64,000 nt of DNA from a virus: positions 96,001 to 160,000 of the IMG/VR virus record IMGVR_UViG_3300045988_082442. One strand, 5' to 3'. The notes below the pieces were generated by a model that did no database searches, was not told where the DNA came from, and saw only the letters and a list, made by a program, of their open reading frames with translations. Made by a program: the position numbers and the translations under genes. Numbering within the stretch: the first letter of the stretch is position 1; the number at the start of each line of letters is the position of its first letter. This document shows positions 3,571 to 49,673 of the stretch, piece by piece.

Positions 3571-3579
3571 AATGTTTAT

Positions 3580-3629
3580 AAGGATAATTTTACAATCCTT
3601 GCAGGAAACTGCAAACTGTGTAATTTGAT
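3580..3629 (+). ncRNA. CRISPR leader module L1 (two-hairpin element)
   Basis: AAGGAT-aattttaca-ATCCTT then GCAG-gaaa-CTGC then AAACTGTGTAATTTGAT, abutting the first repeat; 7 copies in the window with compensatory changes. Confidence 0.7.
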
Positions 3630-3929: not shown

Positions 3930-4178
3930 ATGGAAAATAGAACAAGTGGTTATGTAAATACAGTATCTAATTACGGTTGGGTTTGTCCAATATGTGGTAG
4001 CGTTTATAGTCCTACAACAGTAGAGTGCTACAAATGTAATAAAAGTATGACATCAAGCAGTACAACCATCGATTGGACTGGACCATCAAAGATTACAACA
4101 ATAAATCAGGATGAGATAGCTAGATATAATAATGATGGTACAAAGCATAAGAGAAGTTTAATAAAAGGGGGAAACTAG
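3930..4178 (+). CDS. small zinc-ribbon protein
   Basis: CPICG...CYKC; RBS AAGGAGG upstream. Confidence 0.55.
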   Translation: MENRTSGYVNTVSNYGWVCPICGSVYSPTTVECYKCNKSMTSSSTTIDWTGPSKITTINQDEIARYNNDGTKHKRSLIKGGN

Positions 4179-4179
4179 A

Positions 4180-4767
4180 ATGAAATCTGGTTCAAATAAT
4201 AAATCTAATATGAGAAGTAATATAAAGTTAGGTTTAATAAGTTTAGGTATAATTTTAGGTGTTATACTATTATTTGCCTGTATATTTGCAGGGACTAACA
4301 ACACAGTAATCAGTCTTGAAGAACAAATAAGTGAGAGTAAATCTAGTATAGGAATACAAGAAAAGAGAAGAGCAGATTTAATATGTAATTTAGTTGACAC
4401 TGTTGAAAGTTATAATAAGCATGAACACAACACTTTAGTAGATGTTGTTGAAGCAAGAAGTAAAGCAAATAATGGTGATTTGGCAGAAGCACAGGTTATT
4501 ATAACAGCATTAGCAGAACAGTACCCAGAATTAAAATCTAATGAAAACTATAAATCATTAATGACTGAGTTATCTGTAACAGAAAACTTAATAGCAGAAT
4601 ATAGAAATAATTATAATACACAGGTAAGACAATATAATAAATATGTAAAAGGATTTCCAAGTAGAATGATTTTAAATATTATGGGTTATGAAAAGATAGA
4701 TGCCACATATTTAGAATATGATGGATATGAAGATGCACCTAAAAATTTATTTAAAAATGAGGATTAG
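4180..4767 (+). CDS. lemA: LemA-family membrane protein
   Basis: N-terminal TM, then the LemA-typical core EEQISESKSSIGIQEKRRADLICNLVDTVESYNKHEHNTLVDVVEARS...YPELKSNENY...EYRNNYN. Confidence 0.8.
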   Translation: MKSGSNNKSNMRSNIKLGLISLGIILGVILLFACIFAGTNNTVISLEEQISESKSSIGIQEKRRADLICNLVDTVESYNKHEHNTLVDVVEARSKANNGDLAEAQVIITALAEQYPELKSNENYKSLMTELSVTENLIAEYRNNYNTQVRQYNKYVKGFPSRMILNIMGYEKIDATYLEYDGYEDAPKNLFKNED

Positions 4768-5529: not shown

Positions 5530-6048
5530 TTGAGTACAACATATTATATGAGATTAAAAGATAATGGTAAGTTAGACAAAGTAAGATACCTAATATCTAT
5601 CACAGAAAGAATGATAAATTCTATATTAGAAACACAAGCAAGAGAATTGCATAATATAATACAGATAGATTTAGAGGAAGTATTGAATAAAGATGATTTT
5701 AATAAACAATTCTGTAATGCAGCAGATTGGTATGCTAGTTATCCAGATGAACCAGAAGATTATCATTTAAAAAAGGTATTTATGGAAGATATACCTAGTA
5801 TAGAGGTTAATATAGGTACAAATACAGGTAGTGGATTTCATTGGCATTTAAGTAGCTTAAAAGATGGTTATTATGATACAGAAGAAGTGGATACAGGATT
5901 CTGGAAAGATAAGAAATGTTTTAATATGCCAAGAAGTAAAGAACAGTTAGTTTCATTTATGAATACCTATAAAGATAAGGTAGAAATAGTAGATGAATAC
6001 GGAGAAGTATATACAGTAAAACAATTCTTAAAAAAGGTAAATGAGTGA
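5530..6048 (+). CDS. hypothetical protein
   Basis: 172-aa ORF with TTG start after GGAGGGG. Confidence 0.5.
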   Translation: MSTTYYMRLKDNGKLDKVRYLISITERMINSILETQARELHNIIQIDLEEVLNKDDFNKQFCNAADWYASYPDEPEDYHLKKVFMEDIPSIEVNIGTNTGSGFHWHLSSLKDGYYDTEEVDTGFWKDKKCFNMPRSKEQLVSFMNTYKDKVEIVDEYGEVYTVKQFLKKVNE

Positions 6049-7335: not shown

Positions 7336-8520
7336 ATGGAAATAATACAATTGTTATGCCCATCAGACAAATATTCAATAAAATGCCCATATAGTATGAT
7401 ACCCCAAGGTATTACAATTCATAACACAGCTAATGACGCAAGTGCAAAAAATGAAGTTTCATATATGCTAACAAATAACAATAAAGTATCATATCATTTT
7501 GCAGTAGATGATGTTAGAGCAGTACAAGGTATTCCACTAGATAGAAATGCTTGGCATGCTGGTGATGGAGGAAATGGATTTGGTAATAGATATACAATAG
7601 GAATTGAAATCTGTTATTCAAAATCAGGTGGTGATAGATTCCACGCAGCAGAAAGAAATGGAGCTGAATTAACAGCAAGATTAATGTTACAATATGGATG
7701 GGGTATTTCTACAATTGGAACAAAAGTAGTAAATACACATCAATCAAGAAGTGGTAAATATTGCCCACATAGAACATTAGATGAAGGATTAGAAAGATTC
7801 TGGAATATGGTTAGAGAAAAATATGCTGAATTGTCTGGTCAACCAATACCTACACCAGCACCTACACCATCTGCACCAGCAATAAGTGGTGATTCATATT
7901 TAGTAAGAGTTACAACAGGAGCATTAAATATAAGAGCAGGAGCTGGAACACAATATGATATAACAGGATGTATTAGGGACAGAGGAACATATACAATAGT
8001 AGAAACAAATGGAGATTGGGGAAGATTAAAATCTGGTGCAGGATGGATTTGCTTGAGATATACAAGTAAAGGTTCAGGAAGCACAGCACCATCAACTCCA
8101 ACACAACCAGCAGGACACTATGTTGGTGAAAGTGTTACTATAAATGGTGTATATACATCATCAATGTCAACTAAAAAATTGAACCCAGCAGTAAAAACAG
8201 GAACAATTACTAAAATAGTAAATGGGGCAAATAACCCATATCTATTGAACAATGGTAATATTGGTTGGGTAAATGATTCTTGTATAGTAGGTGGAAATGG
8301 TGGAGGTTCATCCCAACCAGCTACACCAGCAGGATTTAGTAAAGGACAAAGAGTAACATTACTATCATCAGCAACTAGATACTGTACTGGACAAACAATA
8401 CCAGGTTCAGTAAAAGGTAAGACATATACAATAATGCAAGTTGGAAGTGGAAATACACACCCAGACGGAGTATTATTAAAAGAGATTATGTCTTGGGTAT
8501 ATAAGAAAGATGTTAGATAG
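7336..8520 (+). CDS. N-acetylmuramoyl-L-alanine amidase endolysin with SH3b-like cell-wall-binding repeats
   Basis: Amidase_2/PGRP-type motifs GITIHNTAN, SYHFAVDD, AWHAGDG, GIEIC, CPHR; Pro/Thr linkers; SH3b-like YLVRVTTGALNIRAGAGTQY...GDWGRLKSGAGWI. Confidence 0.9.
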   Translation: MEIIQLLCPSDKYSIKCPYSMIPQGITIHNTANDASAKNEVSYMLTNNNKVSYHFAVDDVRAVQGIPLDRNAWHAGDGGNGFGNRYTIGIEICYSKSGGDRFHAAERNGAELTARLMLQYGWGISTIGTKVVNTHQSRSGKYCPHRTLDEGLERFWNMVREKYAELSGQPIPTPAPTPSAPAISGDSYLVRVTTGALNIRAGAGTQYDITGCIRDRGTYTIVETNGDWGRLKSGAGWICLRYTSKGSGSTAPSTPTQPAGHYVGESVTINGVYTSSMSTKKLNPAVKTGTITKIVNGANNPYLLNNGNIGWVNDSCIVGGNGGGSSQPATPAGFSKGQRVTLLSSATRYCTGQTIPGSVKGKTYTIMQVGSGNTHPDGVLLKEIMSWVYKKDVR

Positions 8521-12100: not shown

Positions 12101-13306
12101 AATGGTAAATCTACATTTACATCAAAAGATATAGCAGATGCTGTAATAAAAGAGTTTCCAGAATTAAGAGTATATGGTTGGGTATATAATGATAAAGGTG
12201 TAGTATTTACAAAGAAAGATACTAAAAAAGATGAACCAGAAAAAGTTGAAGAAAAGAAACCATTAGAAAAAGGACCATCTGGTGTGTTTGAAGATGCAGA
12301 TGCAAAATCATTTATAAGAGATATAGCAAACGCAGTAGGAAAGGCAAAAGAAGAAGCAAAAGGAGCTTCAATAGAAATGCCAACAACATGGGAACTAATG
12401 AACAATAATAGTATTATAGTATATGAGTTACCAATTAAATTTACAGGTGATGTAATAGGTTTAGGAGAAGAAATAGCAAAACAATTATATAATATAATTG
12501 GAAGTGCAAAAGTAACAGAAGTAAAATGTGTTCCAGAATCAACTAAAAAAGGAACAGTACTAACATTATCAGTAATAGGACCAGATATAGTAGCACAAAG
12601 TAAAGGTAAGAAAGAAGAAAAAGAAGAAGTAAATCAAGAAAAAGAAGTAAATCAAGAAAAAGAAGTAGAATCAAAGAAATTGACTGAATCAGAAGTTGTA
12701 TGGGATTCAGAACCAACTTATGTAGATAGTATAGATGACCCAGACTTTGTAGAGTGGTTTGAAAATAACAACTATGACGAATACTTAGAAGGAGAAGACG
12801 AAGAAACACAATTAAAAATAAAACAAGATTATCTTGAATCATATAACGAAGATATGAACTCAGCAGTAATGGATGACTGGCAAGAAACTATAATTCCTAA
12901 AATAGAGAATCAATTAGATACAGACGATTTAATAATTTTACAAGGTATAGCACAAACATGGAGGGGACAAGGGGAAGCTTGTAAGATTTTAAGAGGTATG
13001 GATGAATTTGAGAACTTAGTTGCAGATTATGATAATGTTAGACTTGAAGCAAACGATGAAAATGATTTAACTATTGATTTAGTACATCATGATGGAACAC
13101 ATTCTATGGCATTATATACATTTAATGATGATGTAGAAGGTGTTTACAATAAACTTATAGAATTAAATATAGATGGATTTAGTAATGATGAGTATGAAGA
13201 TTTTGATGATGCTTATTCATACTATGATGCAGCTGATTTCTTAGATTGTTTAGCAGACGGACATCAAGAAGAGATGAGAAAATTCTTAATACCAATTAAA
13301 TGGTAA
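9119..13306 (+). CDS. giant acidic multi-module protein, function unknown
   Basis: Likely start ATG 9119 (MDIGNGK) after AGGAGG; the track start at 9050 lies inside the promoter. About 1395 aa, very D/E rich, Cys4 knuckle CPICGG...CPICC, recurring ESKKVEG-like linker motif. Confidence 0.7.
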   Translation: MDIGNGKPLHEIMASILGGNKEDNIIGKQNTTMKVDKEVKKPEEEKVDTADIIKSAPTRPDPNKEEQDVDGVADGILVVTDPEITSEEFEEVADELQGIVDNSEAGELPYTDKYKGDYILSCPICGGTFVSETLLDSGEDTCPICCKIPDAFVVSGRIEGEESADSHEDIQDDIDNEENLEEPAEGEEELQEVEPEMEEPVEEEEPNKKESVNMEGNKLEETKKLQEDEYDDYIENEKALAKEYSERVKGNITQEARTAFYDLKDILDTESNDTSVDGFYFPSKAVAVIENSKAQYHLNGNMDLTVANILNMVDDNDSIEEAIDELFTDYKADSAFSWADNFISILGKLSFDLIEDEDWEIYDWNYKEDSDGDIIEGAGKIGNQEFVFEASREDNMIDFYDFESGETLDITDDELCNYILDLLNGLEESKKVEGDLSKDLYGAEADKRTYNRLQNLDIYLEEYEQAVADKDESRIETAKSKIMGNIGYLIPALNIKGGAKGLVEYIKNTEFDFENKFKETINTLNQFAEEYRKEYEESKKVTEDADDYDEESQQMFDKDTDLINGYCQQLHKLCKEAVNNLNTSNDIPRMSKAFIEIIQMYAAQLGMPFKATLDMSNGTVVLGESKKVEGKKLTEEYYEDGIYAEIEDALRDAGFDIQRYSDAGVLTRNLGWIVYNENGERADLSCDGTYLDENKKLTEGADTREATEIFINGLDKAVNTQSIVNAECMDEFFQNAKGILMEVAENYDDYKDTQRASSLTESKDPTYIVCSYYDEKLHGLEDELKTDDWSEVEDFAHRKLMQGNMLEIENTKTGKYRRINPDEYDETFDGEFIVRPEELDEAKKVEELINNMYDFNKVEESKEKKEEARVHRVLNKGDRFQNKNGVIATIIDVDNEHLLDGQPQVTYKFNDGAAKCYPMNSVNDMLNDCGYTKMEESEKRTVKTESRDRVAEKLPRFIYNLTSDADVKAFGESAWSANEPTSNGLGIVVYEVYRNGKSTFTSKDIADAVIKEFPELRVYGWVYNDKGVVFTKKDTKKDEPEKVEEKKPLEKGPSGVFEDADAKSFIRDIANAVGKAKEEAKGASIEMPTTWELMNNNSIIVYELPIKFTGDVIGLGEEIAKQLYNIIGSAKVTEVKCVPESTKKGTVLTLSVIGPDIVAQSKGKKEEKEEVNQEKEVNQEKEVESKKLTESEVVWDSEPTYVDSIDDPDFVEWFENNNYDEYLEGEDEETQLKIKQDYLESYNEDMNSAVMDDWQETIIPKIENQLDTDDLIILQGIAQTWRGQGEACKILRGMDEFENLVADYDNVRLEANDENDLTIDLVHHDGTHSMALYTFNDDVEGVYNKLIELNIDGFSNDEYEDFDDAYSYYDAADFLDCLADGHQEEMRKFLIPIKW

Positions 13307-13354
13307 TATAGATGTTATAATATATAGATGTTATAATATATAGATGTTATAATA
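13307..13354. repeat. 3 x 16-bp perfect tandem repeat TATAGATGTTATAATA
   Basis: Copies at 13307, 13323 and 13339, followed by the partial copy TATAGAGGTGATATA; each unit contains TGTTATAAT (extended -10-like). Confidence 0.9.
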
Positions 13355-13436
13355 TATAGAGGTGATATATTATGTTGAGAAGAGGAACTGTTTTCTAGGC
13401 AGGTAGTAAAACCCTGCTAGAAAGTAGGTGGACAAT

Positions 13437-13822: not shown

Positions 13823-13868
13823 AGAGGAATTAGTATAAATAAATATATTGAGAAGAGGTAGGTATTAT

Positions 13869-16800
13869 ATGAATGAACAATTAGACTTAATGACATCTTT
13901 ATCAATGGAAGAGTTAGAAGCAGTAAAAGAGATACTAAATGAAATATCAACAACAGGAAGTTCAGAAATGTATGATGCAATAAATTTAGCAGACTATGAA
14001 GAAATACCTGTTGACCTATGGACTTTTCTATCAAGAGATGATTTATTAGGAAAATATACAAATGGTGGTAAGGATATATATCAAACTTGGGTTAATGAGT
14101 TAAAATATGTTCATAACCCAGCAAACTTTGTAGACCAATGGGCTATTACAGGAAGTACAGGAACTGGTAAATCAACAGTTGCTACATATTCATTATGTTA
14201 TGAATTATATAAGCTTATGTGTTTAAAGAATCCAAATAGATTTTACTTAGGGGCAAATGAAACTATATGGTTTTTATTCTTTAACCTTAATTTAAAATTA
14301 GCAGAGAAGACTATGTGGGGAAAATTCCAGAAAGCATTACAAATGTCTCCTTGGTTCCTAGAAAGAGGAACAGTATCTGGAAAAACAAACTTAGTATATC
14401 AACCAAATAAAGATATAAAACTAGATATAGGTTCTACTGAGGAGCATGCTTTATCAGTAGCAGTACAATTCGCAGCAATGGATGAGATGTCTTTTGGAAG
14501 CAATGATAATGTTGAATATTTACAAACAGGAATGATGGCAATATATAATCAGTTATATCTTCGTTTATCTTCTCGTTTCTTATCAGCAGGAAGAATACAA
14601 GGTAGAATGTATCTTATATCTTCAGCTAAATCTACAAATGCTGTTTTAGAATCATTTATAAAAGATAATGAGGGACAACCAGGAATGCATGTAAGTAGAT
14701 ACAAACAGTGGGAGGTATTACCAGCATCAAAGTTTAGTGGTAAGTGGTTTAAATTAGCAGTTGGAAATGAATTATTAGAAAGTTATATAATGGGTGTAGA
14801 TGTTAGTGATGAAGATGTTAAAAATGTAGAAATGCAAGGATACCAAGTAATAGATGTACCATTAGAAATGATGAGAAGATTTGAGATGGACTTAAATAGA
14901 ACACTGATAGATACCTGTGGTATAGCAGTACAATCATCATATAAGTTTATTCCATATAGAATAATAGAACCATGTTTAGGAGATGGAATAAATCCATTTA
15001 AACAAGAGATTATAAAAACAGGTATGAAAGATAATATGCAGATAAAAGATTTCTTTGAACCAGAAATAGTACCAGAAATATTATATTCTAAAAAGTTATA
15101 TATACACTGTGACTTATCAAAATCAGGAGATATGACAGGAATAAGTTGTGTAGCAGTACTAGGATATAAGAACCAAGAAAGATATGATGCAGAAGGGAAT
15201 TTGAGTACACTAAAAGAAATGGTATTTAGGCATGTATTTAGTATAGGTCTACAATGTCCAGCAAATGATGAGTTAAGTATGATAAAAGTAAAAGACTTTA
15301 TACATTATCTAAAATATGATTTAGGGTGGAACATAGCAGGAGTAAGTTGTGATGGTTATCAGTCTTTAATGCTATTACAATCATTGAGATTAGATGGATT
15401 TACAACAAGTGAAGTATCTATGGATATTTTAAAGAATAAAGAATGTGTAGGTTATACATCTTTTAGAAATGCTTTACTAGAAAAAAGAATATATTTATTA
15501 AAGCTACATGAACTAATAAGAGAAATAACTAATCTGGAAAAGAATGAAACAACAGGTAAAATAGACCACCCACGCCAATGTCTTACTGGGGATACAAAAG
15601 TAAGAATGCTAGATGGCACTTCAAAAACAATGACAGATTTATTATTGGATTATCAAAATAATATTCCAAATTATGTATATAGTTTTAATGAGACAACACA
15701 TAAAATTGAACCAAATCTTATAAAGAAAGTTTGGCAGACAAGGTATGAAAAGTGTATATATGAAATAACATTAGATAATGATGAAATAATAAGATGCACC
15801 GAAAATCACCCATTTATGTTAAGAGATGGTCAATATATTGAAGCAAAAAATTTAAAGACTGATGATGCTTTAATGCCTTTATATACAAAATTAGCTGGAA
15901 AAGGTGGATTAAAAGATTACAGAATATATTATGAACCTATGGAGGGGAGATGGCATTTTGAACATACAAGATTTGACCCAATAAGGAAATTAAAAAGAAT
16001 CAAGGGTAATGTTACTCATCATGCAAACTATAATAAGTTGGACAATAGACCTATAAATCTAAAATATATTACAAAGGCAAAACACAGATGGATACACAAT
16101 AGACATCCAGGTAAGTATGAGAATTTGAAGAGAAGCAAGACTATTACAGAGTGGCATGCTCAAAATAAAAATAGTGTAGAGTATAAAGCAAGAAATGAAA
16201 AGTGCAGAATTGGTGTAATAAATTATTATGTAAACAATCCAGCTATCATGAATAAAAAAGTTAGTTCATTTAAAAATACAATTTCTAAACTCTCTACAGA
16301 AGAGCTTAGTAAAAAATTTGGAAAGAATAAAGGAAGACATTGGTACACTAACGGAGTTAATAATATGTTGCTATACCCAACAGATTTGGTTCCTGATGGT
16401 TATTTTAAGGGTAAGACACAAGATGGTAAATGGTACACTAATGGTGCTAAGACAATACTTGTAAAGGCAGCTGATGATATACCAGATGGATTTTATGCAG
16501 GAAGAACACTTGAATATAAAAATCACAAAGTAAAGAGCATAAGGGTTAGATATGGCTATGAAAAGGTATATGATTTAGAGGTGGAAAACAATCCCAATTT
16601 TGCTTTAGATGCTGGTGTTTTTGTGCATAATAGCACAACTATCAATAAAGAAACAGGAGAAAAGGTAAAATCAGTAGGTAAGGATATTAGTGATAGTTTA
16701 GGTGGAGCTGTATATAATGCAATATTATCAGTAAACCTAGATGAACTAGATTATTTAGACCAAAAGATATTGACTAACGATGGACAAGGAAATACTTATA

Positions 16801-17030
16801 TAAGAAGTCTATCAACAGAAAATGCAATAAATAAGAAATTTGGATTTACAGTAGATAGAATGGGTGTAGTACATCTTCAAGATACAGAAAAGAAAGAAAC
16901 AGATAAGCAAGAAGATATAAATGCAATAATAAGTGATGAAATGGAAAAATTAAAAGAACATAAGTCAACAGTAGAAACTGTAGACCCTAATAAATATTGG
17001 GGTAATAAAAGTGGAATGATTATAATATAG
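13869..17030 (+). CDS. terL: terminase large subunit, interrupted in frame by an intein
   Basis: Walker A GSTGTGKST, Walker B-like AAMDEMSF, nuclease-domain motifs HCDLSKSGD, SCDGYQS, GKDISDSLGGAVYNA; likely start ATG 13869 after AGAGGTAGG. Confidence 0.85.
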   Translation: MNEQLDLMTSLSMEELEAVKEILNEISTTGSSEMYDAINLADYEEIPVDLWTFLSRDDLLGKYTNGGKDIYQTWVNELKYVHNPANFVDQWAITGSTGTGKSTVATYSLCYELYKLMCLKNPNRFYLGANETIWFLFFNLNLKLAEKTMWGKFQKALQMSPWFLERGTVSGKTNLVYQPNKDIKLDIGSTEEHALSVAVQFAAMDEMSFGSNDNVEYLQTGMMAIYNQLYLRLSSRFLSAGRIQGRMYLISSAKSTNAVLESFIKDNEGQPGMHVSRYKQWEVLPASKFSGKWFKLAVGNELLESYIMGVDVSDEDVKNVEMQGYQVIDVPLEMMRRFEMDLNRTLIDTCGIAVQSSYKFIPYRIIEPCLGDGINPFKQEIIKTGMKDNMQIKDFFEPEIVPEILYSKKLYIHCDLSKSGDMTGISCVAVLGYKNQERYDAEGNLSTLKEMVFRHVFSIGLQCPANDELSMIKVKDFIHYLKYDLGWNIAGVSCDGYQSLMLLQSLRLDGFTTSEVSMDILKNKECVGYTSFRNALLEKRIYLLKLHELIREITNLEKNETTGKIDHPRQCLTGDTKVRMLDGTSKTMTDLLLDYQNNIPNYVYSFNETTHKIEPNLIKKVWQTRYEKCIYEITLDNDEIIRCTENHPFMLRDGQYIEAKNLKTDDALMPLYTKLAGKGGLKDYRIYYEPMEGRWHFEHTRFDPIRKLKRIKGNVTHHANYNKLDNRPINLKYITKAKHRWIHNRHPGKYENLKRSKTITEWHAQNKNSVEYKARNEKCRIGVINYYVNNPAIMNKKVSSFKNTISKLSTEELSKKFGKNKGRHWYTNGVNNMLLYPTDLVPDGYFKGKTQDGKWYTNGAKTILVKAADDIPDGFYAGRTLEYKNHKVKSIRVRYGYEKVYDLEVENNPNFALDAGVFVHNSTTINKETGEKVKSVGKDISDSLGGAVYNAILSVNLDELDYLDQKILTNDGQGNTYIRSLSTENAINKKFGFTVDRMGVVHLQDTEKKETDKQEDINAIISDEMEKLKEHKSTVETVDPNKYWGNKSGMIII
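15579..16631 (+). mobile_element. intein with HNH-type homing endonuclease insert (351 codons)
   Basis: HPRQ|CLTGDTKVRMLDG (block A, Cys1), ...YDLEVENNPNFALDAGVFVHN|S (block G, His-Asn plus Ser+1); internal THHANYNKLDNRPINLKYITKAKHRWIHN and two WYTNG repeats. Confidence 0.85.
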
Positions 17031-28941: not shown

Positions 28942-28978
28942 AAAAATGCTTGACATAATTTAAAACTTATAATATACT
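28942..28978 (+). promoter_or_regulatory. class-1 conserved phage promoter copy driving CRISPR array 2
   Basis: AAAAATGCTTGACATAATTTAAAACTTATAA then TATACT; no ORF between it and the leader/array. Confidence 0.7.
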
Positions 28979-29215: not shown

Positions 29216-29773
29216 ATGAGTGATTTTAAATTTATATTGTATTTAGATATGGATGGTGTAACAGCATCATCAAGTTATATAATAAAGATACATAATTACA
29301 TAATAAATAAGGAAGATGAAAATAAAGACTGGGAATATAGAAACTTTATGCAAAATTGGTGTTTTCAGAAGGAAGCAGTAGAATGCTTAAATTCTATATA
29401 TGATATAATACCATATAAAATAGTTCTATCAACTACAAGAAGATTTGAACTGGATATAAATGGATGGAACACAGTATTTAAGATAAATAAGATTAAAGCA
29501 AAAATAATAGGAAGAACATCTAAATGTGCATTTGATAAGAATAAATATACTTGGAGAGAAGATGAGATATATAAATATCATTATATAGACCATGACCTAA
29601 AGGACGTACCATTGATAATAATAGATGACGATAGCTTTGATTTACAGAAGTTTGAAGATAAACTAATAAAGGTAGATGGTACAGAAGGACTAACAATGAA
29701 ATACTATAAAGAAATATTAGATAAATTATATAAACAAGGTATTATGTATAAGGGGGATAGTAATGAGTATTGA
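29216..29773 (+). CDS. HAD-superfamily hydrolase-like protein
   Basis: Motif I LDMDGV, motif II LSTTRR, acidic IIIDDD. Confidence 0.5.
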   Translation: MSDFKFILYLDMDGVTASSSYIIKIHNYIINKEDENKDWEYRNFMQNWCFQKEAVECLNSIYDIIPYKIVLSTTRRFELDINGWNTVFKINKIKAKIIGRTSKCAFDKNKYTWREDEIYKYHYIDHDLKDVPLIIIDDDSFDLQKFEDKLIKVDGTEGLTMKYYKEILDKLYKQGIMYKGDSNEY

Positions 29774-30390: not shown

Positions 30391-30427
30391 TAAAATACTT
30401 GACAAAATTTAAAACTTATTATAGAAT
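30391..30427 (+). promoter_or_regulatory. class-1 conserved phage promoter copy
   Basis: TAAAATACTTGACAAAATTTAAAACTTATTA then TAGAAT. Confidence 0.65.
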
Positions 30428-30455
30428 AGATACAGTTAAAAGAAGGAGGTGCTTT

Positions 30456-32003
30456 ATGGAAGATAGAGATAGAACAGAGCATGTATTCAAGAGTATAAAA
30501 TATCATTTGAATAAACTAAAAGACGCAAGACCAGAATATGAATTTTTAATGATAGCAGCACAGGGTAGTCAGAACTATAATTTAGATTTATATACAGAAG
30601 AATATAAATCAGATGTAGATACAGTAGCAATAGTATTACCCCCAGTAGAAGATATTATAAATAATGCACCATTTGTTAGTGAGACAATAATCTTAGGAAA
30701 TAATGAACATATAGATGTAAAAGATTTAAGACAAATAATAGAGTTATTTAAGAAACAGAATATTAAATACTTAGAGATATTATTTACTAAATTTAGAATA
30801 ATCAATAGTAAATATAAAGATGAAGTACTAGAGTTATTGAATAATGCTGATAATATAGCTAAATTAAACCCAAAGAAATTAGTAACTAGCTCATTTGGAA
30901 TGCAGTTAGAAAAGCATAAAGCATTAGAACATCCTTATGAGGGATTAAAAGAGAAAATATCTAAATATGGGTATGATGGAAAGCAATTACACCATATAAT
31001 AAGACTAACACATTTTGTAAATAGGTATATTAAAGACTTAGATTTTAGAAATGCAATGAACTTTGAAGATATAGATGATAATATATATAATGATTTAATA
31101 AAAGCTAAGTTAAATAAATATAGTTTAGATATGGCAAGAAGTGAGGCATTAACACAGACACAAAGATTAATGAACATAAAAGATGAGTTTGTATTATCTT
31201 ATAAAGACCTAGATACATCTAATACATTAGAGTTTCTAAGTACAATAAAGAATAAAATATTTAATAAATATCTTGAATACAAATTTACACCAGAAGATAA
31301 GATAGAAAAACCTATACTAATACCATCAGCAGATAGAATATTTGTAACATCTGATTTACATTTTGGGCATTCAAATATATTAAAATATGAACCTAAAAGA
31401 TGGGAACTAACAGGTACAACTGAATTAAAAGCAATAAGTGAAACATTAATAGATGAAGGATTTACAAATGAAGAAATATCTAATATGCCAGATGATTTAT
31501 GGGATAAATATAGAAATATAACCTGTAATAAATATATGGAAAAACATGATAAAGAACTTATTAGAAGATGGAATGAGAGAGTAAAAGAAGATGACCTTGT
31601 ATTTATATTAGGTGATTTATCTTTCAGAACTGGTACAGAAACAAATAAAATATTAAAACAGTTAAAAGGTAGAAAGGTATTGATAAAAGGTAATCATGAG
31701 AATATCTGGATGAATAAGAATGCTGACCTATCATTATTTGAAGAAATAGTCGATTATAAAGAGATAAAGGTAGATAAATGTATGTTTTGCATGTCACATT
31801 ATCCATTTAGAGTATGGAACCAACAGCATAATGGCTCAATACAATTATTTGGACATATACATAGTAATGAAACAACAAGCCATCCAATGAAAGAAGAAAT
31901 ACCTTATTCATATAATGTAGGTGTAGATGTAAATAATTATTATCCAGTAAGTCTAAAAGACTATGTAGTGACATCTAACTACTGTAATGAATTAGAGATA
32001 TAA
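30456..32003 (+). CDS. fusion protein: RlaP-like nucleotidyltransferase plus metallophosphoesterase
   Basis: ATG 30456 after AAGGAGG; N-terminal AAQGSQNYNLDL...SDVDT (PF10127-like); C-terminal SDLHFGH, LGDLS, GNHE, GHIH. Confidence 0.6.
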   Translation: MEDRDRTEHVFKSIKYHLNKLKDARPEYEFLMIAAQGSQNYNLDLYTEEYKSDVDTVAIVLPPVEDIINNAPFVSETIILGNNEHIDVKDLRQIIELFKKQNIKYLEILFTKFRIINSKYKDEVLELLNNADNIAKLNPKKLVTSSFGMQLEKHKALEHPYEGLKEKISKYGYDGKQLHHIIRLTHFVNRYIKDLDFRNAMNFEDIDDNIYNDLIKAKLNKYSLDMARSEALTQTQRLMNIKDEFVLSYKDLDTSNTLEFLSTIKNKIFNKYLEYKFTPEDKIEKPILIPSADRIFVTSDLHFGHSNILKYEPKRWELTGTTELKAISETLIDEGFTNEEISNMPDDLWDKYRNITCNKYMEKHDKELIRRWNERVKEDDLVFILGDLSFRTGTETNKILKQLKGRKVLIKGNHENIWMNKNADLSLFEEIVDYKEIKVDKCMFCMSHYPFRVWNQQHNGSIQLFGHIHSNETTSHPMKEEIPYSYNVGVDVNNYYPVSLKDYVVTSNYCNELEI

Positions 32004-32073
32004 AAATGTTCAGTAAGATGTTAATAAGAATGTAAGTAAGTTTTCTGGTATCTTGATAAAAACCAGAATATAT

Positions 32074-32146
32074 CTCCTTATGGTGTAATAGGCAAACACG
32101 CTACTGAGTGGTGGTAGAATTATAGGTTCGAGCCCTGTTGGGGAGG
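32074..32146 (+). ncRNA. tRNA-like element A (non-canonical anticodon loop, no encoded CCA)
   Basis: Acceptor CTCCTTA/TGGGGAG, D arm GTGT/ACAC, T arm ATAGG-TTCGAGC-CCTGT are good; anticodon stem CTACT/GGTAG closes the loop GAGTGGT, which lacks U33. Confidence 0.5.
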
Positions 32147-32180
32147 ATAAATTCTATATATAGAATAATGTGTTACGCAG

Positions 32181-32266
32181 TATCTGTATTATAAGGTGAC
32201 AAGTACACAGGACGCTGTGGAGGGTTTCAATTCCTGGTAGTTGATTAGGTCTACAAAATACAGATA
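32181..32266 (+). ncRNA. unassigned structured element B (10-bp closing stem)
   Basis: TATCTGTATT (32181-90) pairs with AATACAGATA (32257-66); internal hairpins CACAG-gacg-CTGTG and GTAG...CTAC; not foldable by eye as a tRNA. Confidence 0.35.
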
Positions 32267-32272
32267 TAATAT

Positions 32273-32344
32273 CAGGTGGTAGTTGATAGGAAAACACTTC
32301 TACTAATGTATGAAGAGATGCTGGTTCGAATCCAGCCCTCCTGA
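32273..32344 (+). ncRNA. tRNA-like element C (acceptor/T-arm minihelix intact, D and anticodon arms degenerate)
   Basis: Acceptor CAGGTGG/CCTCCTG (one U-U), T arm GCTGG-TTCGAAT-CCAGC; no convincing 5-bp anticodon stem or 7-nt loop. Confidence 0.45.
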
Positions 32345-32357
32345 CCTTTTCAAAAAT

Positions 32358-32443
32358 GCAAGTATATCTCAACGGCAGAGCAGCCTCCAGTTGGGGGTGA
32401 AAAGTAGCATACGATTGTGTAGGTTCGAATCCTACTACTTGCA
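32358..32443 (+). ncRNA. tRNA-like element D (long variable region, non-canonical anticodon arm, no CCA)
   Basis: Perfect acceptor GCAAGTA/TACTTGC, T arm GTAGG-TTCGAAT-CCTAC, D arm CTC-aacggca-GAG; the central region does not give a standard anticodon arm. Confidence 0.5.
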
Positions 32444-32446
32444 ACC

Positions 32447-32489
32447 TAAAAATGACACAGATGTAAAAGAATATATTCATAGGTTATAT
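32447..32489 (+). CRISPR. solitary crRNA-like unit: repeat 3' handle (23 nt) plus a 20-nt guide, flanked by tRNA-like D and tRNA-Trp
   Basis: TAAAAATGACACAGATGTAAAAG (32447-32469) matches the 3' part of the array repeats; followed by AATATATTCATAGGTTATAT, ending one base before tRNA-Trp position 1. Confidence 0.65.
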
Positions 32490-32564
32490 AGGAGCTTGGT
32501 GTCAATGGTAGCACGACAGTCTCCAAAACTGTGAGTGAGAGTTCAAATCTTTCAGCTCCTGCCA
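32490..32564 (+). tRNA. tRNA-Trp (anticodon CCA), CCA encoded
   Basis: Acceptor AGGAGCT/AGCTCCT, D arm GTGT/GCAC, anticodon arm ACAGT-CTCCAAA-ACTGT, T arm GAGAG-TTCAAAT-CTTTC, G73, CCA. Confidence 0.85.
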
Positions 32565-32778
32565 ACATATCAATAATTCTAAATAAAATAAAAATAATCA
32601 GATTGGGTTTGGTACACCTGTAAGTTTGGGTATAGATATGGTCCTAAAAGGTCAGTCTTGATTATGCACAGAGATGTGCTGGCGAACGGTGAATTATTGA
32701 TATAAACAGATTGGATTATAACCTCTATAAGTTCAAGATAGAATGGGCTTGAAATACAATCTGTCAGTAATTTAATAT

Positions 32779-32864
32779 GGGTAGTTGGGTGAGTGGCTAA
32801 AACCATCAGACTGTAAATCTGACCTCATTTGAGTTCCCTAGTTCGAATCTAGGACTACCCACCA
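32779..32864 (+). tRNA. tRNA-Tyr (anticodon GTA), long variable arm, CCA encoded
   Basis: Acceptor GGGTAGT/ACTACCC, anticodon arm TCAGA-CTGTAAA-TCTGA, variable arm CCTCATTTGAGTTC, T arm CCTAG-TTCGAAT-CTAGG, A73, CCA. Confidence 0.85.
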
Positions 32865-32919: not shown

Positions 32920-33144
32920 TTTTTATAGCTATATGAAATAATACAGGTGTAAAAGTGTTCTAACTGTTTTAGAGTATAATCGTTTGTTTTACAGATATAT
33001 GAAATAACACAGGTGTAAAAGCTAGACTGTAAATCTGGTCTCATTTGAGTTACTTTGTAGTTATATGAAATAGCACAGATGTAAAATTGGATAATATGTT
33101 CTGAATTGTTTTATAGCTATACAGAAATGACATGGATGTAAGAG
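32920..33144 (+). CRISPR. mini-array 4: 4 diverged repeats; spacers 30, 30 and 20 nt; directly upstream of the effector gene
   Basis: R1 TTTTTATAGCTATATGAAATAATACAGGTGTAAAAG (32920), R2 GTTTTACAGATATATGAAATAACACAGGTGTAAAAG (32986), R3 ACTTTGTAGTTATATGAAATAGCACAGATGTAAAAT (33052), R4 GTTTTATAGCTATACAGAAATGACATGGATGTAAGAG (33108). Confidence 0.8.
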
Positions 33145-35007: not shown

Positions 35008-35017
35008 TATAAATTAT

Positions 35018-35089
35018 AGGGTAATTTTACAGCCCTTGCAGGAAACTGCAAATAAAATATCATTTTAAAGCTCTATGATATTGTAAAAG
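35018..35089 (+). ncRNA. solo leader module L5 plus truncated degenerate repeat
   Basis: AGGGT-aattttaca-GCCCT, GCAG-gaaa-CTGC, then ATTTTAAAGCTCTATGATATTGTAAAAG (35062-35089), which resembles the repeat ends. Confidence 0.6.
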
Positions 35090-35124
35090 AAACTGATTTA
35101 AAAATCAGTTTGTATATTCTTTTT
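35090..35124 (+). terminator. intrinsic terminator
   Basis: AAACTGATTT-aa-AAATCAGTTT followed by GTATATTCTTTTT. Confidence 0.65.
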
Positions 35125-45013: not shown

Positions 45014-45269
45014 GATTGTAGAAGAATATAAAAGAATATACAGTAGAAAGTATAGAAGAGCTCATTATAAGAGTAAATGGGTATTACAATCTGGTAATCA
45101 ACTAGCAGAAGAAGATTTTAAATCTTGGTGTCAAGAATCAAAAGTTATAATGAGAAAGCATAAAGTTGGATTAATTACTGATGATGATATGTTGGGGTAT
45201 ATAAATAAATGGATAGAACAAGATGTTAAGATAAAAGAAGAAATAGATATACTTGCTTTGAGCAAGTAA
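44979..45269 (+). CDS. basic hypothetical protein
   Basis: Probable start ATG 44979 (MKKSTKKETRNK); the track start at 44880 would overlap the upstream gene by 134 nt. Confidence 0.45.
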   Translation: MKKSTKKETRNKIVEEYKRIYSRKYRRAHYKSKWVLQSGNQLAEEDFKSWCQESKVIMRKHKVGLITDDDMLGYINKWIEQDVKIKEEIDILALSK

Positions 45270-45276
45270 TAGATAT

Positions 45277-45309
45277 AAGGGTAATTTTATAACCCTTGCA
45301 GGAAACTGC
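45277..45309 (+). ncRNA. solo leader module L6 (no intact repeat follows)
   Basis: AAGGGT-aattttata-ACCCTT, GCAG-gaaa-CTGC; then GAACTATTTTTAATAGATATAAAAGC, only a faint repeat remnant. Confidence 0.6.
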
Positions 45310-45390
45310 GAACTATTTTTAATAGATATAAAAGCTTTTTTCGATACCCCAATTTATAAGATAAATAAAACAGAATAGAGGTAGGAAGTT

Positions 45391-47859
45391 ATGAGAAATT
45401 TAGTAGTATTAAGAGGATGCCCAGGTGCAGGGAAATCAACTTGGATAAAAGAAAATGGTTTAGAGCCTTATACATTATGTCCAGATACAATAAGGACAAT
45501 GGTAAGTGCTCCAGTATATACAGAAGAACATGATACTGAGATGACTATATCTCAGCAAAATGAAACTTATACATGGAATTTATTATTTGAATTACTTGAA
45601 AATAGAATGAAGAATGGTGATTTTACAGTAATAGATGCAACACATAGCAGGTCATCAGATTTTAGTAGATATAACGATTTATGTTCTACATATAGATATA
45701 GAAGATATACTGTATCATTTACAGATGTACCAGAAGAAGTATGTAAACAAAGAAATCTGGAAAGAGATGCCTATAAACAGGTACCACCTGAAGTTATAGA
45801 AAAGATGTATGCTAGATTTGCAACACAAAATAAAACAAGTGGATGGACAGAAATTCCAAGAGATAAATTCTGGGAAGTATTTAGTAATAAAGTGTTTGAT
45901 TTTAATAAGTATGAAAAAGTTCATATATTTGGTGATATTCATGGATGTTATGACCCACTAGAACAATATATAGTAGATAGCTATAATGGAGATGATGTAC
46001 ATGAAGATTTAAGCCCAGAAACATTAAAGAATTTATTAAATAAAGATGAGGCTTATATATTTGTAGGTGATTACTTAGATAGAGGATTACAAAATAAAGA
46101 AGTTTTAAAATTTATGATTTCAATATGTCAATTAGATAATGTTTTATGCTTAGAGGGAAATCACGAAAGATATTTATGGTATTGGGCTAATGAACAAGAT
46201 AATGAAATAAGAAGTAAAGAGTTCTTTAATCATACAGTACCACAAATAAGAGGTATATCTCCATCTGATATAAGACAATTTTATAGAAAATTAGGACAAA
46301 TGGCATTATTTACATTTAATAATGAAACATATTTTGTAACACATGGTGGATTATCATTATTACCAGAACACTTACCATTAGTATCAACAAATTGTCTAAT
46401 AAATGGTACAGGAAGATTTAAGTTTCCAATAGATGAAAGATATACAGAAAATATGCAAGGTAAAAATGTATTACAAGTACATGGTCATAGAAATATGGAA
46501 TGTGATTATAAAGGAAAACTACCTTTATCATTCTCACTAGAAGATAGAGTTGAGTTTGGTGGTAATTTTGTAGTATTAGAAATAAATGAGAAAGGTAATT
46601 ACTTCCATAGAATAAAGAATGATACATTTAGGGAACCTGATTATGACAATAAAGAAGAAGAAATAATACCAGCATTTGATATGACAATGGACAATATTGT
46701 AGAAAGAATGAGATTGAATAAGAACATAAAAGAAACAGTGCTACCAGATGGTATATCATCTTTTAACTTTACTAGACAAGCATTTGAAAAAGATAGATGG
46801 AACTCAGAAACAGTTAAAGCAAGGGGATTATTTATAGATACTGAAAACAATAAAATAGTTGCAAGAGGATATGAGAAGTTCTTTAATATAAATGAACAAG
46901 AAAACTGTAAATTATTTAATCTAAAATCATTATTTAATACAGGATTACCTGTAATTGCATATAAGAAGTATAATGGATTTTTAGGAATATTAAGTTATTA
47001 TCATGATGAGTTAAAATTCCATTCAAAATCTACTAATATAGGTGATTATGCAAACTACTTTAAAGACCTATTTTATAAAAGATTTACTGACAAACAAATA
47101 GATATGATTACAGATTATTTAAAGAATAATAATGTATCAATGGTATTTGAAGTTATAGACATAGACAATGACCCACATATCATAGAAGAAAAAGAAAGCA
47201 GAGTAGTTTTATTAGATATAATCAGAAATGAAGTAGAGTTTAGCAGATTACCTTATGACCAGTTATTACTTTTAGCAAACTTATGGGGAATAAAAGAAGA
47301 TGGTGTAAAACAAATATATAAAGAATTTACATCATACAGAGAGTTGACTGAGTTCTATGAAATACATAAAGATGATAAAAACTTTAATGATATTGATATA
47401 GAAGGAGTTGTAATAGAATGTGGTAACTTTATGACAAAGCTTAAATTTAATTATTATAGATTCTGGAAGGGTATGAGAAGTGTTGCAGAAAAATTACAAA
47501 GTGGAAGAGATAATGTAAAATTAAGTATGTTATACAATGCAACTGCAAACTATTTCTATAAGTTTGTAAAAGATATGGTAGAAGAAAAACAGTTAGAACT
47601 TCTAAAAATAAAAGATACATTAGGATTGGGAGATATAAATGCTGGTGATTTAAGAAGAGCAGAATTAGACTTTGAAAATAATATGATTACAATTCATAAA
47701 AGAGATAGAAGAGCTTATTATATAGGAAATGATATTACAGCAGAAAATGTTATTACAGCAACAACAACCCCAGAAATAATGAACAAACTATCAGAACTAC
47801 AAAAATCAAAGGATATAATAACATTAAGAAACGAATATTATAGAAATGGTGGTGTTTAA
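45391..47859 (+). CDS. Pnkp-like RNA repair enzyme (polynucleotide kinase, metallophosphatase, RNA ligase)
   Basis: Walker A GCPGAGKST; GDIHGC, GDYLDRG, GNHE, HGH; ligase motif I AYKKYNGFLG; the same domain order as bacterial Pnkp. Confidence 0.75.
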   Translation: MRNLVVLRGCPGAGKSTWIKENGLEPYTLCPDTIRTMVSAPVYTEEHDTEMTISQQNETYTWNLLFELLENRMKNGDFTVIDATHSRSSDFSRYNDLCSTYRYRRYTVSFTDVPEEVCKQRNLERDAYKQVPPEVIEKMYARFATQNKTSGWTEIPRDKFWEVFSNKVFDFNKYEKVHIFGDIHGCYDPLEQYIVDSYNGDDVHEDLSPETLKNLLNKDEAYIFVGDYLDRGLQNKEVLKFMISICQLDNVLCLEGNHERYLWYWANEQDNEIRSKEFFNHTVPQIRGISPSDIRQFYRKLGQMALFTFNNETYFVTHGGLSLLPEHLPLVSTNCLINGTGRFKFPIDERYTENMQGKNVLQVHGHRNMECDYKGKLPLSFSLEDRVEFGGNFVVLEINEKGNYFHRIKNDTFREPDYDNKEEEIIPAFDMTMDNIVERMRLNKNIKETVLPDGISSFNFTRQAFEKDRWNSETVKARGLFIDTENNKIVARGYEKFFNINEQENCKLFNLKSLFNTGLPVIAYKKYNGFLGILSYYHDELKFHSKSTNIGDYANYFKDLFYKRFTDKQIDMITDYLKNNNVSMVFEVIDIDNDPHIIEEKESRVVLLDIIRNEVEFSRLPYDQLLLLANLWGIKEDGVKQIYKEFTSYRELTEFYEIHKDDKNFNDIDIEGVVIECGNFMTKLKFNYYRFWKGMRSVAEKLQSGRDNVKLSMLYNATANYFYKFVKDMVEEKQLELLKIKDTLGLGDINAGDLRRAELDFENNMITIHKRDRRAYYIGNDITAENVITATTTPEIMNKLSELQKSKDIITLRNEYYRNGGV

Positions 47860-49186: not shown

Positions 49187-49193
49187 TAAATAT

Positions 49194-49243
49194 AAGGATA
49201 ATTTTACAATCCTTACAGGAAACTGTGAACTGTGTAATTTAAT
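49194..49243 (+). ncRNA. CRISPR leader module L7
   Basis: AAGGAT-aattttaca-ATCCTT, ACAG-gaaa-CTGT (compensatory relative to GCAG/CTGC), GAACTGTGTAATTTAAT. Confidence 0.7.
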
Positions 49244-49673
49244 ATCCTATAGCTATATAAAATGACACAGATGTGAAAGTATTGCAACATTAAAATACCC
49301 TATTTTTGGGGTTTTATGGCTATATAAAATAACACAGATGTGAAAGAGGGATTTTGTTTTGTTAGCATTTATTTCTGTTTTATAGCTATATAAAATGACA
49401 CAGATGTGAAAGTCTGGAACAAATCTTGAAAAGTCCAGCTTTGTTTTATGGCTATATAAAATAACACAGGTGTGAAATAATTCAAAGTATTGTTCAAATA
49501 GTTTCTGTGTTTTATAGTTATATAAAATGACACAGATGTGAAAGGAATACTAAAATAAAGTAGCAATTGAGCTAGTTCTATAGCTATATAAAATGACACA
49601 GATATGAAAGTTAAGCTCATGAATGATAGCAACAATAGTTTTATAGATATATAAGAAGCAGAAAGGAGAAAAT
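49244..49673 (+). CRISPR. mini-array 5: 6 good repeats plus a degenerate terminal repeat; spacers 31, 30, 30, 30, 30 and 27 nt
   Basis: Repeats at 49244, 49311, 49377, 49443, 49509, 49575 (for example GTTTTATAGCTATATAAAATGACACAGATGTGAAAG at 49377); terminal GTTTTATAGATATATAAGAAGCAGAAAGGAGAAAAT at 49638. Confidence 0.9.

Follow-up and report, generated by a model that had tools for sequence, protein, structure and literature searches.

A short folded leader at the head of dispersed CRISPR-like arrays in a large phage genome: a probable guide-RNA scaffold for a Cas12f/TnpB-like nuclease

The locus and its leader elements

The DNA analyzed here, referred to as the window, is a 64,000-nucleotide (nt) stretch of a viral genome (IMG/VR record IMGVR_UViG_3300045988_082442, positions 96,001 to 160,000; all positions below are those of the stretch). 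The subject here is a 48-nt leader element that stands at the head of arrays resembling CRISPR (short palindromic repeats that are clustered and regularly interspaced). The phage genome from which the window comes is large and AT-rich, with nearly all genes on the + strand; the window contains a gene for the terminase large subunit (13848-17030), five tRNAs and five CRISPR-like arrays with 17 recognizable copies of a 36-nt repeat, GTTTTATAGCTATGTAAAATGACACAGATGTGAAAG. We refer to the leader copies of the window as L1 to L7, and to related loci by three-digit labels such as L001, L005 and L153. The leaders, their arrays and the two neighboring genes of most concern are as follows.

3578..3627, + strand: L1 leader (stem 1 at 3580-3585/3595-3600, stem 2 at 3601-3604/3609-3612, anti-repeat at 3616-3627)
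3630, 3696 and 3762: repeats of array 1, behind L1
29007..29056, + strand: L2 leader, with a promoter motif (28950-28970) just upstream
29059 and 29125: repeats of array 2, behind L2
30047..30096, + strand: L3 leader
30100, 30167, 30233 and 30290: repeats of array 3, behind L3
32779..32864, + strand: tRNA-Tyr, its 3' end just upstream of L4
32867..32916, + strand: L4 leader, 3-5 nt past the tRNA-Tyr 3' end
32920 and 32986, with remnants to ~33144: repeats of the partly degenerate array 4, behind L4
33202..35007, + strand: open reading frame (ORF) of 601 amino acids (aa) encoding a nuclease with a Cas12f/TnpB-like RuvC domain that is presumed to partner the leader RNA
35015..35089, + strand: L5 leader and half-repeat unit, directly after the nuclease stop codon
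45275..45334, + strand: L6 compact scaffold (covariance-model score 66.8 bits)
49192..49241, + strand: L7 leader
49244-49610: six repeats of array 7, behind L7

An initial annotation of this DNA had reported seven copies of the leader, and a pattern search of the window recovered seven where 0.08 would be expected by chance; all are + strand copies, and their loops begin at 3586, 29015, 30055, 32875, 35023, 45283 and 49200. A covariance model built from the leaders alone retrieved the same seven and nothing else in the window (57-68 bits, E <= 1e-15), and it detected further copies in related loci. The stem sequences quoted earlier for each copy proved correct when the window was read again, and RNAalifold independently recovered the two hairpins on which that annotation rested, with 7 of 10 pairs changed on both sides. 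When Rfam covariance models were run on the window only tRNAs reached the gathering score and the leader was unmatched; nothing relevant appeared at E <= 1 around L1 or L6. Five copies begin 7-10 nt behind a stop codon, much as had been described (ORF end 3570 and L1 at 3580; 30041 and L3 at 30049; 35007 and L5 at 35017; 45269 and L6 at 45277; 49186 and L7 at 49194), and the sequence ATAAATAATAAATATAAGG does lie upstream of both L3 and L7.

Fold of the leader and its pairing with the repeat

Four helices can form on the + strand RNA, and all four co-vary: stem 1, stem 2, a duplex between the leader tail and the repeat, and a pseudoknot. The 3' tail of the leader is an anti-repeat that is always complementary to repeat positions 16-27, giving a duplex of 9-11 base pairs (bp). 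The stem-1 loop, UUUUACA, is complementary to repeat positions 29/30-35 (UGUAAAA or UGUGAAA), which adjoin the spacer, and this contact forms the pseudoknot; the loop of stem 2 is mostly of the GNRA type. From 5' to 3' the elements follow as the first pseudoknot strand within stem 1, stem 2, the anti-repeat:repeat adapter hairpin, the second pseudoknot strand and the guide. When leaders are compared beside their first repeats, the tail is seen to change with the repeat from one related locus to another.

window: leader tail CUGUGUAAUUU, repeat segment AAAUGACACAG
L145: leader tail UAUGUUAUUUU, repeat segment AAAAUAACAUA
L005: leader tail UAUGUAAUUU, repeat segment AAAUUACAUA
L001_4988: leader tail UAUGUAAAAU, repeat segment AUUUUACAUA

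The loop follows the repeat as well. Loop position 16 is C, U or G opposite G, A or C at repeat position 30, so that the pair is CG, UA, GC or UG and is formed in all 23 copies of the main alignment; in L145 a C at loop position 14 faces a G at repeat position 32. The loop had been called nearly invariant, and AAUUUUACA is indeed conserved. The reason evidently is its pairing with the repeat 3' end, to which it is complementary, and the description as invariant does not hold to the extent that the loop changes along with the repeat.

Two variations on this plan occur in related loci. The most divergent leaders, those of L152, have an additional covarying stem 3 between stem 2 and the anti-repeat (1986-2010 and 4121-4145); its sequence is wholly different between the two copies, GAACGC/GCGUUC and GAAUAU/AUAUUC, with pairing kept. 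Additionally, the anti-repeat segment UAUGUAAUUU is present in tandem, with three copies in L005_7817 (7853-7886) and two in L153_7828 (7864-7897).

Covariation and controls

Compensatory changes maintain both hairpins, within the window as well as in 13 related phage loci. The main alignment comprised 23 copies from 11 loci, each entered as a fixed-register construct that runs from 2 nt of upstream sequence through stem 1 with its loop, stem 2 and the 12-nt anti-repeat to the end of the 36-nt first repeat, with linkers removed and shortened units padded with N. These constructs, which fit the alignment to the model, were used because alignment of whole leader-to-repeat sequences with MAFFT broke up the anti-repeat columns. 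The four-helix model gives standard pairs in 89.6% of 653 cells, as against 34-49% when the partners are slid by 1-3 columns, and both-side changes occur in 21 of its 29 pairs. In 500 shuffles the observed value was never reached on any of five measures, including two that rarely give false positives. The helices contribute as follows.

Stem 1: 98.6% of cells paired, both-side changes in 6 of 6 pairs
Stem 2: 100% of cells paired, both-side changes in 4 of 4 pairs
Pseudoknot: 93.1% of cells paired, both-side changes in 2 of 7 pairs
Anti-repeat duplex: 79.1% of cells paired, both-side changes in 9 of 12 pairs

The model was then applied to nine hold-out copies that were never used in forming the idea. 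These were found either with the leader-only covariance model, which holds no repeat information (L005, L023 and L146), or by protein homology; L153 is an unrelated locus with five more copies, reached by a protein search of IMG/VR. With the same structure string, 88.8% of the hold-out cells are paired compared with 33-51% in slid registers, both-side changes occur in 14 of 29 pairs, and again none of 500 shuffles reached the observed values. The hold-out copies bring new stem-2 sequences (GCGC/GCGC, ACGG/CCGU, ACGC/GCGU, GCGG/CCGC and UGGA/UCCA), and one compact hold-out copy has a C-G pair in the pseudoknot where the 31 other copies all have U-A. Across the main and hold-out sets, by complementarity and covariation, 79-83% of anti-repeat cells are paired, with positions 2-8 almost always so, and 86-93% of pseudoknot cells. 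The proposal that the leader is a folded element under selection, more than a shared integration leader, is thus borne out by stems with changes on both sides of every pair in the 23 copies and by agreement of the nine hold-outs. Because G-U pairs on the + strand are frequent (9-10 at one stem-1 pair and 5 at one stem-2 pair), they favor an RNA made from the + strand over a DNA cruciform.

Leaders are matched to their own arrays

Some related loci carry more than one repeat variant, and there the leaders match their own variants. For example, L001 has two repeat variants with a tail that matches each (UAUGUAAAAU/AUUUUACAUA and CUGUGU/AUACAG), so that L001_4988 is unlike L001_9339, and L005_5847, with the tail and repeat UAUAUAAU/AUUAUAUA, is unlike the other L005 arrays. 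Cognate leader-repeat sets form 15.8 of 19 pairs compared with 14.7 in permuted sets, and none of 20,000 permutations reached the observed value. Set against the leader of its array, every internal repeat of the window retains 8-11 of the 12 pairs of the anti-repeat duplex and 6-7 of the 7 pairs of the pseudoknot, and because of this complementarity, pairing of the leader with internal repeats in trans is possible.

Structure within the repeat itself was also considered. Neither the repeat's own 5' hairpin nor a pairing of its 5' end with its 3' end shows covariation, and the second of these leaves position 30 without a partner in 12 of 21 copies. In a 3-bp hairpin of the 3' half, one of the three positions fails to pair in 16 of 23 copies. 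By these comparisons the repeat is without a conserved hairpin able to act as a tracr-less handle. In the known tracr-less Cas12 systems the repeat carries its own handle, and the repeat described here, which has no conserved handle of its own, is unlike theirs. No further anti-repeat is present anywhere in the window, i.e. there is no rival trans-activating CRISPR RNA (tracrRNA).

Compact units

L5 and L6 had been taken for copies without arrays. This view has to be revised, as both are self-contained units of a scaffold and a half-repeat, a layout shared with L001_9937 and L153_1372. It had also been stated that L6 is not followed by an intact repeat; the repeat is indeed shortened, but L6 is not a bare leader since the remnant retains the pairing partners. 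Its stem 1 (45277-45282/45292-45297) encloses the loop AAUUUUAUA (45283-45291) and is followed by stem 2 (45298-45301/45306-45309) which GAAA caps. A 5-bp duplex with a 3-nt loop is formed between the anti-repeat CUAUU (45313-45317) and AAUAG (45321-45325). Behind this duplex is UAUAAAAG, which matches the altered L6 loop UUUUAUA, a C-to-U change in the loop being offset by G-to-A in the 3' partner; the pseudoknot 3' strand UAUAAAA lies at 45327-45333 and a putative guide begins at 45335. Just upstream of L6 an 8-bp palindromic hairpin, TACTTGCT-TTG-AGCAAGTA (45250-45268), overlaps the stop codon of the preceding ORF.

The corresponding duplex of L5 joins its anti-repeat AAUAUCA (35056-35062) to UGAUAUU (35076-35082) and is followed by UGUAAAAG, with the pseudoknot 3' strand UGUAAAA at 35082-35088; a terminator-like hairpin (35090-35111) and a T-rich stretch come next. 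The L5 and L6 pairings are in the same register as in the full arrays, and in L5, L6 and L153_1372 both pairings are kept through compensated changes, with the guide position directly 3' of the scaffold. In L153_1372 a 67-nt compact scaffold and a 22-nt guide exactly fill the space between tRNA-Cys (1296-1371) and tRNA-Phe (1461-1536), and because of this exact fit we argue that the compact units would be made for excision and use and would not be decaying remnants. A search of the compared loci for second sites of the compact-unit guides gave nothing convincing.

The 601-aa nuclease and its family

In profile searches with PADLOC the 601-aa protein matches Cas12f (E 4e-7, residues 222-415 only) and Cas12u3 (E 6e-6), the NCBIfam match to TnpB is weak (E 0.003), and by tblastn the protein matches IS200/IS605 TnpB genes in Clostridium phages. 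No Pfam match was obtained, phmmer and family-profile searches of PDB sequences (E <= 10) were empty, and megablast of the DNA against phage records returned nothing. An AlphaFold model of the protein has a mean predicted local distance difference test score (pLDDT) of 65 and is good over the N-terminal two thirds. The best Foldseek matches of this model in the PDB are AsCas12f, Cas12m2, CnCas12f1 and TnpB at 10-13% identity, with Cas12f at the top (E 3.6e-8) and TM-scores of 0.25-0.35. The RuvC motifs GIDLG, IENN and QRDLY are conserved in the family; the first D is replaced by N in one member, and the D/E/D set is intact in most.

The family is rare. A word search among 5.8 billion proteins found 8 members, and about 28 clusters (50% identity) scored below 1e-30 among 1.84 billion representatives before a gap to ordinary TnpB-like proteins. 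IMG/VR holds one member; 185,579 species genomes, when scanned with the protein, yielded none. Members are carried on phage-like contigs, among them several of 195-209 kb and at least one of gut origin. Leaders are present in every locus that has a nuclease relative and enough flanking sequence, and in at least nine genomes one starts 7-16 nt past the nuclease stop codon (window, L001, L005, L022, L023, L145, L146, L152 and L153), the place where one would look for an omegaRNA or tracrRNA. A literature search found no paper on this nuclease family, an absence that does not prove the family unpublished.

In L001, L148 and L150, ORFs of 519-596 aa stand upstream of the nuclease in the same position as a 534-aa ORF of the window (30399-32003). 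The only match of this ORF is weak and metallophosphoesterase-like (E 0.001), and its product may be an accessory protein of the system.

Transcription context

A promoter-like phage motif, TTGACAWAAYTTAAAACTTAT, occurs 11 times in the window where 0.11 would be expected.

591, 6129, 9050, 23294, 23681, 28950, 30399, 35270, 39626, 43389 and 53300, + strand: promoter-like motif

Among the seven leaders only L2 has this motif within 60 nt upstream (28950), and no convincing sigma-70-like site was found for L6; the leader-array units lie mostly at the ends of transcription units delimited by the motif sites. In five cases a leader starts at, or within 5 nt of, the 3' end of a tRNA or a transfer-messenger RNA (tmRNA).

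Window: tRNA-Tyr end at 32864, followed by L4
L001: tRNA end at 9327, leader at 9328
L005: tRNA end at 4627, leader at 4628; tRNA end at 5842, leader at 5847
L146: tmRNA end at 931, leader at 932

A junction of tRNA and leader like that at L4 is found also in L001, L005, L146 and L153, and we infer that the 5' end of the L4 leader would come from processing of the tRNA 3' end.

The tRNA cluster of the window includes one tRNA whose anticodon is not clear (32357-32446), and relatives have a tmRNA and 11-19 tRNAs. RNA repair and translation genes are abundant both in the window (45391-47859, 29216-29773 and 32073-32864) and in L005, L022, L146 and L153; those for RNA repair include a kinase-phosphatase-RNA ligase fusion and a protein with a HAD "Swiss army knife" RNA-repair domain. 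Elsewhere in the window, a perfect tandem repeat of the 16-mer ATATAGATGTTATAAT (3.4 repeats, 13306-13360) lies after a 1418-aa ORF and upstream of the terminase gene.

Spacers and searches for further leaders

Certain spacers are shared between phages with nucleases that are only ~40-55% identical, with 2 mismatches in 21 nt in one instance and 1 mismatch in 24 nt in another.

Conserved spacers: window 33088-33108 and 49413-49442; L001 9888; L152 2263; L145 1592

This conservation suggests inherited, fixed guides and not a fast-turnover immunity. The spacers were unmatched when compared with 50,697 phage records. The spacer at 33022-33054, in the array after L4, resembles the anticodon-arm region of the phage's own tRNA-Tyr (4 mismatches in 24 nt), a segment that occurs also in L145; it could target the tRNA-Tyr gene of a host or rival and spare the phage's own copy, or it could be a local duplication.

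When IMG/VR was scanned for exact matches to a pattern of the leader core, 15 were obtained, all of them in coding sequence without the hairpin and attributable to chance. A loose pattern applied to metagenome contigs gave at least 120 matches, and among the matches listed a hairpin filter left no genuine metagenome leader; L092, L099 and L109, the only metagenome matches to pass it, are one repeated sequence and not a leader.

Interpretation and alternative explanations

We consider it probable that the leader is the RNA scaffold of a phage-encoded, type V-like CRISPR system, a miniature tracrRNA fused to the 5' end of the array and resembling an omegaRNA. It is read as omegaRNA- or tracrRNA-like because its layout is that of the TnpB omegaRNA and of the Cas12 tracrRNA paired with a CRISPR RNA (crRNA). 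The 601-aa nuclease would bind the scaffold, a possibility raised in the initial annotation and the one that we favor, and leader, first repeat and first spacer together would constitute a natural single-guide RNA (sgRNA) in cis. Downstream repeats may pair with leader copies in trans, or the duplexes may be sites where the pre-crRNA is processed. The 5' ends would arise through processing of tRNA or tmRNA 3' ends or through cleavage of the upstream mRNA, and compact units such as L5 and L6 would be self-contained single guides in which the adapter hairpin has shrunk and both pairings are retained.

Several observations weigh against this interpretation. A scaffold of 48 nt is far below the published lengths of Cas12f and Cas12p tracrRNAs (118-185 nt for Cas12p), there is one leader for every 2-6 repeats, and the "guides" of L5 and L6 resemble a terminator hairpin and a U-run. 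The structural model of the nuclease is poor toward the C-terminus (pLDDT < 50 at residues 393-539), and its best fold matches include the tracrRNA-independent Cas12m. Setting the anti-repeat register by eye and removing the linkers biases the pair counts toward the model, and the copies are related, so that independent events are fewer than cells. Finally, a purely regulatory pairing of leader and first repeat has a precedent in the Cas13b (type VI-B) system (PMC13187072).

That precedent leads to the main rival, which we regard as improbable. It holds that the leader is no guide scaffold and controls processing: its sole partner would be the first repeat on the transcript that it heads, and their pairing would block or prioritize the first crRNA. 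A gap of 2-3 nt separates tail and first repeat, the tail corresponds to the array that it precedes, and the tail-repeat duplex is part of the minimum-free-energy structure that RNAfold gives for leader plus first repeat, all of which such a regulatory role would explain. However, it would leave the two further covarying hairpins and the contact between the loop and the repeat 3' end unexplained. Additionally, to judge from type V polarity, a Cas12-type first repeat precedes a genuine spacer, so that there would be no extraneous crRNA to block. L5, L6 and L153_1372 have no array to regulate and yet keep both pairings, and L153_1372 is bounded precisely by two tRNAs.

Two other alternatives explain the covariation with the repeat even less well. 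One that we judge unlikely, more so than the regulatory hairpin, is that the leader is a processing or insulation module, in which the hairpins serve host RNases (RNase III, Y, E or Z), separate the array from the upstream mRNA or tRNA and shield the pre-crRNA at its 5' end, while complementarity to the repeat would be secondary. The position of five window copies 7-10 nt behind stop codons, and of others at tRNA or tmRNA ends, is in keeping with such a module; with a promoter of its own at one copy only and starts behind genes or tRNAs, most arrays must therefore be released from longer transcripts. A generic signal, however, has no need of a loop and tail that covary with the repeats of their own array, and the stem sequences vary freely whereas the segments that match the repeat follow it.

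Very unlikely, in our view, is a conventional leader acting as DNA, a promoter and/or signal for spacer integration with hairpins that are incidental or form DNA cruciforms. The AT-richness of the element, its constant place ahead of the first repeat and its copying about the genome along with the arrays are in keeping with such a leader. Against this, the many G-U stem pairs of the + strand are A-C mismatches on the other strand, six of seven copies lack the promoter motif in or just before them, and there are copies without arrays. The spacers common to phages with ~40-55% identical nucleases also speak against active acquisition at the leader end, and no Cas1 or Cas2 was detected among the few ORFs scanned (eight against Pfam, five against NCBIfam and PADLOC; not an exhaustive set). 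The least credible alternative is that L5 and L6 are guide-less RNA decoys, anti-CRISPRs that soak up a Cas12-like effector of a competitor or host: two 2026 bioRxiv titles indicate that phage-encoded mimics of repeats or sgRNAs are known, and terminator-like sequence and no obvious spacer follows L5 and L6, but the matching nuclease is encoded by the phage beside L5, real arrays are headed by like scaffolds, and no host system with this repeat was found, with no nuclease relative among the 185,579 species genomes.

Returning to the guide scaffold, we advance more tentatively a broader picture. Gut phages of ~200 kb may harbor an undescribed type V subtype in which the tracrRNA was never split from the array, each dispersed array being headed by a 48-nt omegaRNA-like scaffold and its first unit being a natural single-guide RNA. 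The ends would be cut by the tRNA-processing machinery, some units would have collapsed to a scaffold, a half-repeat and one fixed guide, and the whole would stand as an extant intermediate linking TnpB omegaRNA and CRISPR arrays. If so, one genome family would display proposed steps from TnpB omegaRNA to CRISPR arrays and tracrRNAs, namely a scaffold fused to an array, full arrays beside half-repeat units and a scaffold co-evolving with its own repeats. It would also present a very short natural single-guide design for a nuclease of ~600 aa, of relevance to compact genome-editing tools: leader (48 nt) and repeat (21 nt) add up to a guide scaffold of ~70 nt, far less than the 118-185 nt of the Cas12p tracrRNA alone, and parts that can be deleted would already be visible in nature, such as the adapter hairpin that is down to 5 bp in L6. 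The layout of tRNA, guide and tRNA, along with the conserved spacers, would then suggest fixed inherited guides, perhaps one of them tRNA-Tyr-like, and such guides would point to conflict between phage and host or phage and phage and not to classical adaptive immunity.

Comparison with known systems

One of the closest known systems is Cas12f, which provides the best hidden Markov model and fold matches of the nuclease and has a similar guide topology. In Cas12f, as here, an upstream RNA is pseudoknotted with the last repeat bases by the spacer (R:AR-1), a 3' anti-repeat sits on the middle of the repeat (R:AR-2), and stems lie between. Cas12f tracrRNAs are well over 100 nt. The scaffold described here differs in being ~48 nt and joined to the array, 2-3 nt from the first repeat, instead of forming a separate gene; in being present in one copy per array, with seven in 64 kb; and in the nuclease, which is ~10-13% identical to solved structures and without a sequence match in the PDB.

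The TnpB omegaRNA is likewise a single RNA with the scaffold 5', the guide 3', a pseudoknot and a "guide adapter hairpin". It starts at the 3' end of the nuclease gene, as do L5-type copies in nine loci including the window; the protein is linked to TnpB by tblastn and NCBIfam, and L5, L6 and L153_1372 resemble small omegaRNAs. In contrast, most copies here precede true repeat-spacer arrays, and the scaffold is much shorter. The copies here are also dispersed between unrelated phage genes and do not stand at the end of a transposon, although TnpA genes and insertion-sequence ends were not searched for.

Cas12p, the "Cas12 hacker", is a phage-encoded miniature Cas12 of 500-700 aa (PDB 9jfs) with catalytic residues D378, E478 and D582, zinc-finger and thioredoxin-binding domains, and a 118-185 nt tracrRNA of six stems and an AAAC:UUUG pseudoknot (bioRxiv 10.1101/2025.01.20.633832). 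A pseudoknot of the tracrRNA with the repeat 3' end is described there as general for Cas12 and TnpB guides (section 9). The present system shares with Cas12p its phage origin, its size, its place as an early intermediate from TnpB to Cas12, its rarity as a family and the pseudoknot of the tracrRNA with the repeat 3' end. Assignment to the Cas12p family was rejected, as there is no sequence match in a PDB copy that we assume to include Cas12p, the tracrRNA length and catalytic positions differ, and structure 9jfs is only 25th in the Foldseek results (E 2.3e-4). Cas-delta was rejected as well, since its proteins are 867-936 aa and need no tracrRNA.

The leader-repeat hairpins of type VI-B (PMC13187072) and type II-A systems are similar in that leader RNA pairs with the first repeat of its own transcript. 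The elements described here differ by two extra covarying hairpins, the pseudoknot contact, the array-free copies and a place directly after the nuclease gene. In engineered polycistronic tRNA-gRNA arrays, guide RNA (gRNA) units are set between tRNAs and freed by RNase P and RNase Z. The leaders at tRNA and tmRNA 3' ends, and L153_1372 exactly between two tRNAs, recall this design; the arrangement here is a natural one, with processing that is putative.

Finally, in the sigma-TnpB systems derived from Cas12f, the array is proposed to have been minimized to half a direct repeat and fused with the tracrRNA, so that an omegaRNA was re-created and then duplicated (PMC10691335; PMC13472631). This layout is exactly that of L5, L6, L001_9937 and L153_1372. 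The nucleases of those systems have no catalytic activity and act together with a sigma factor, whereas here the RuvC D/E/D residues are intact in most members, and full arrays and fused units occur together within one genome.

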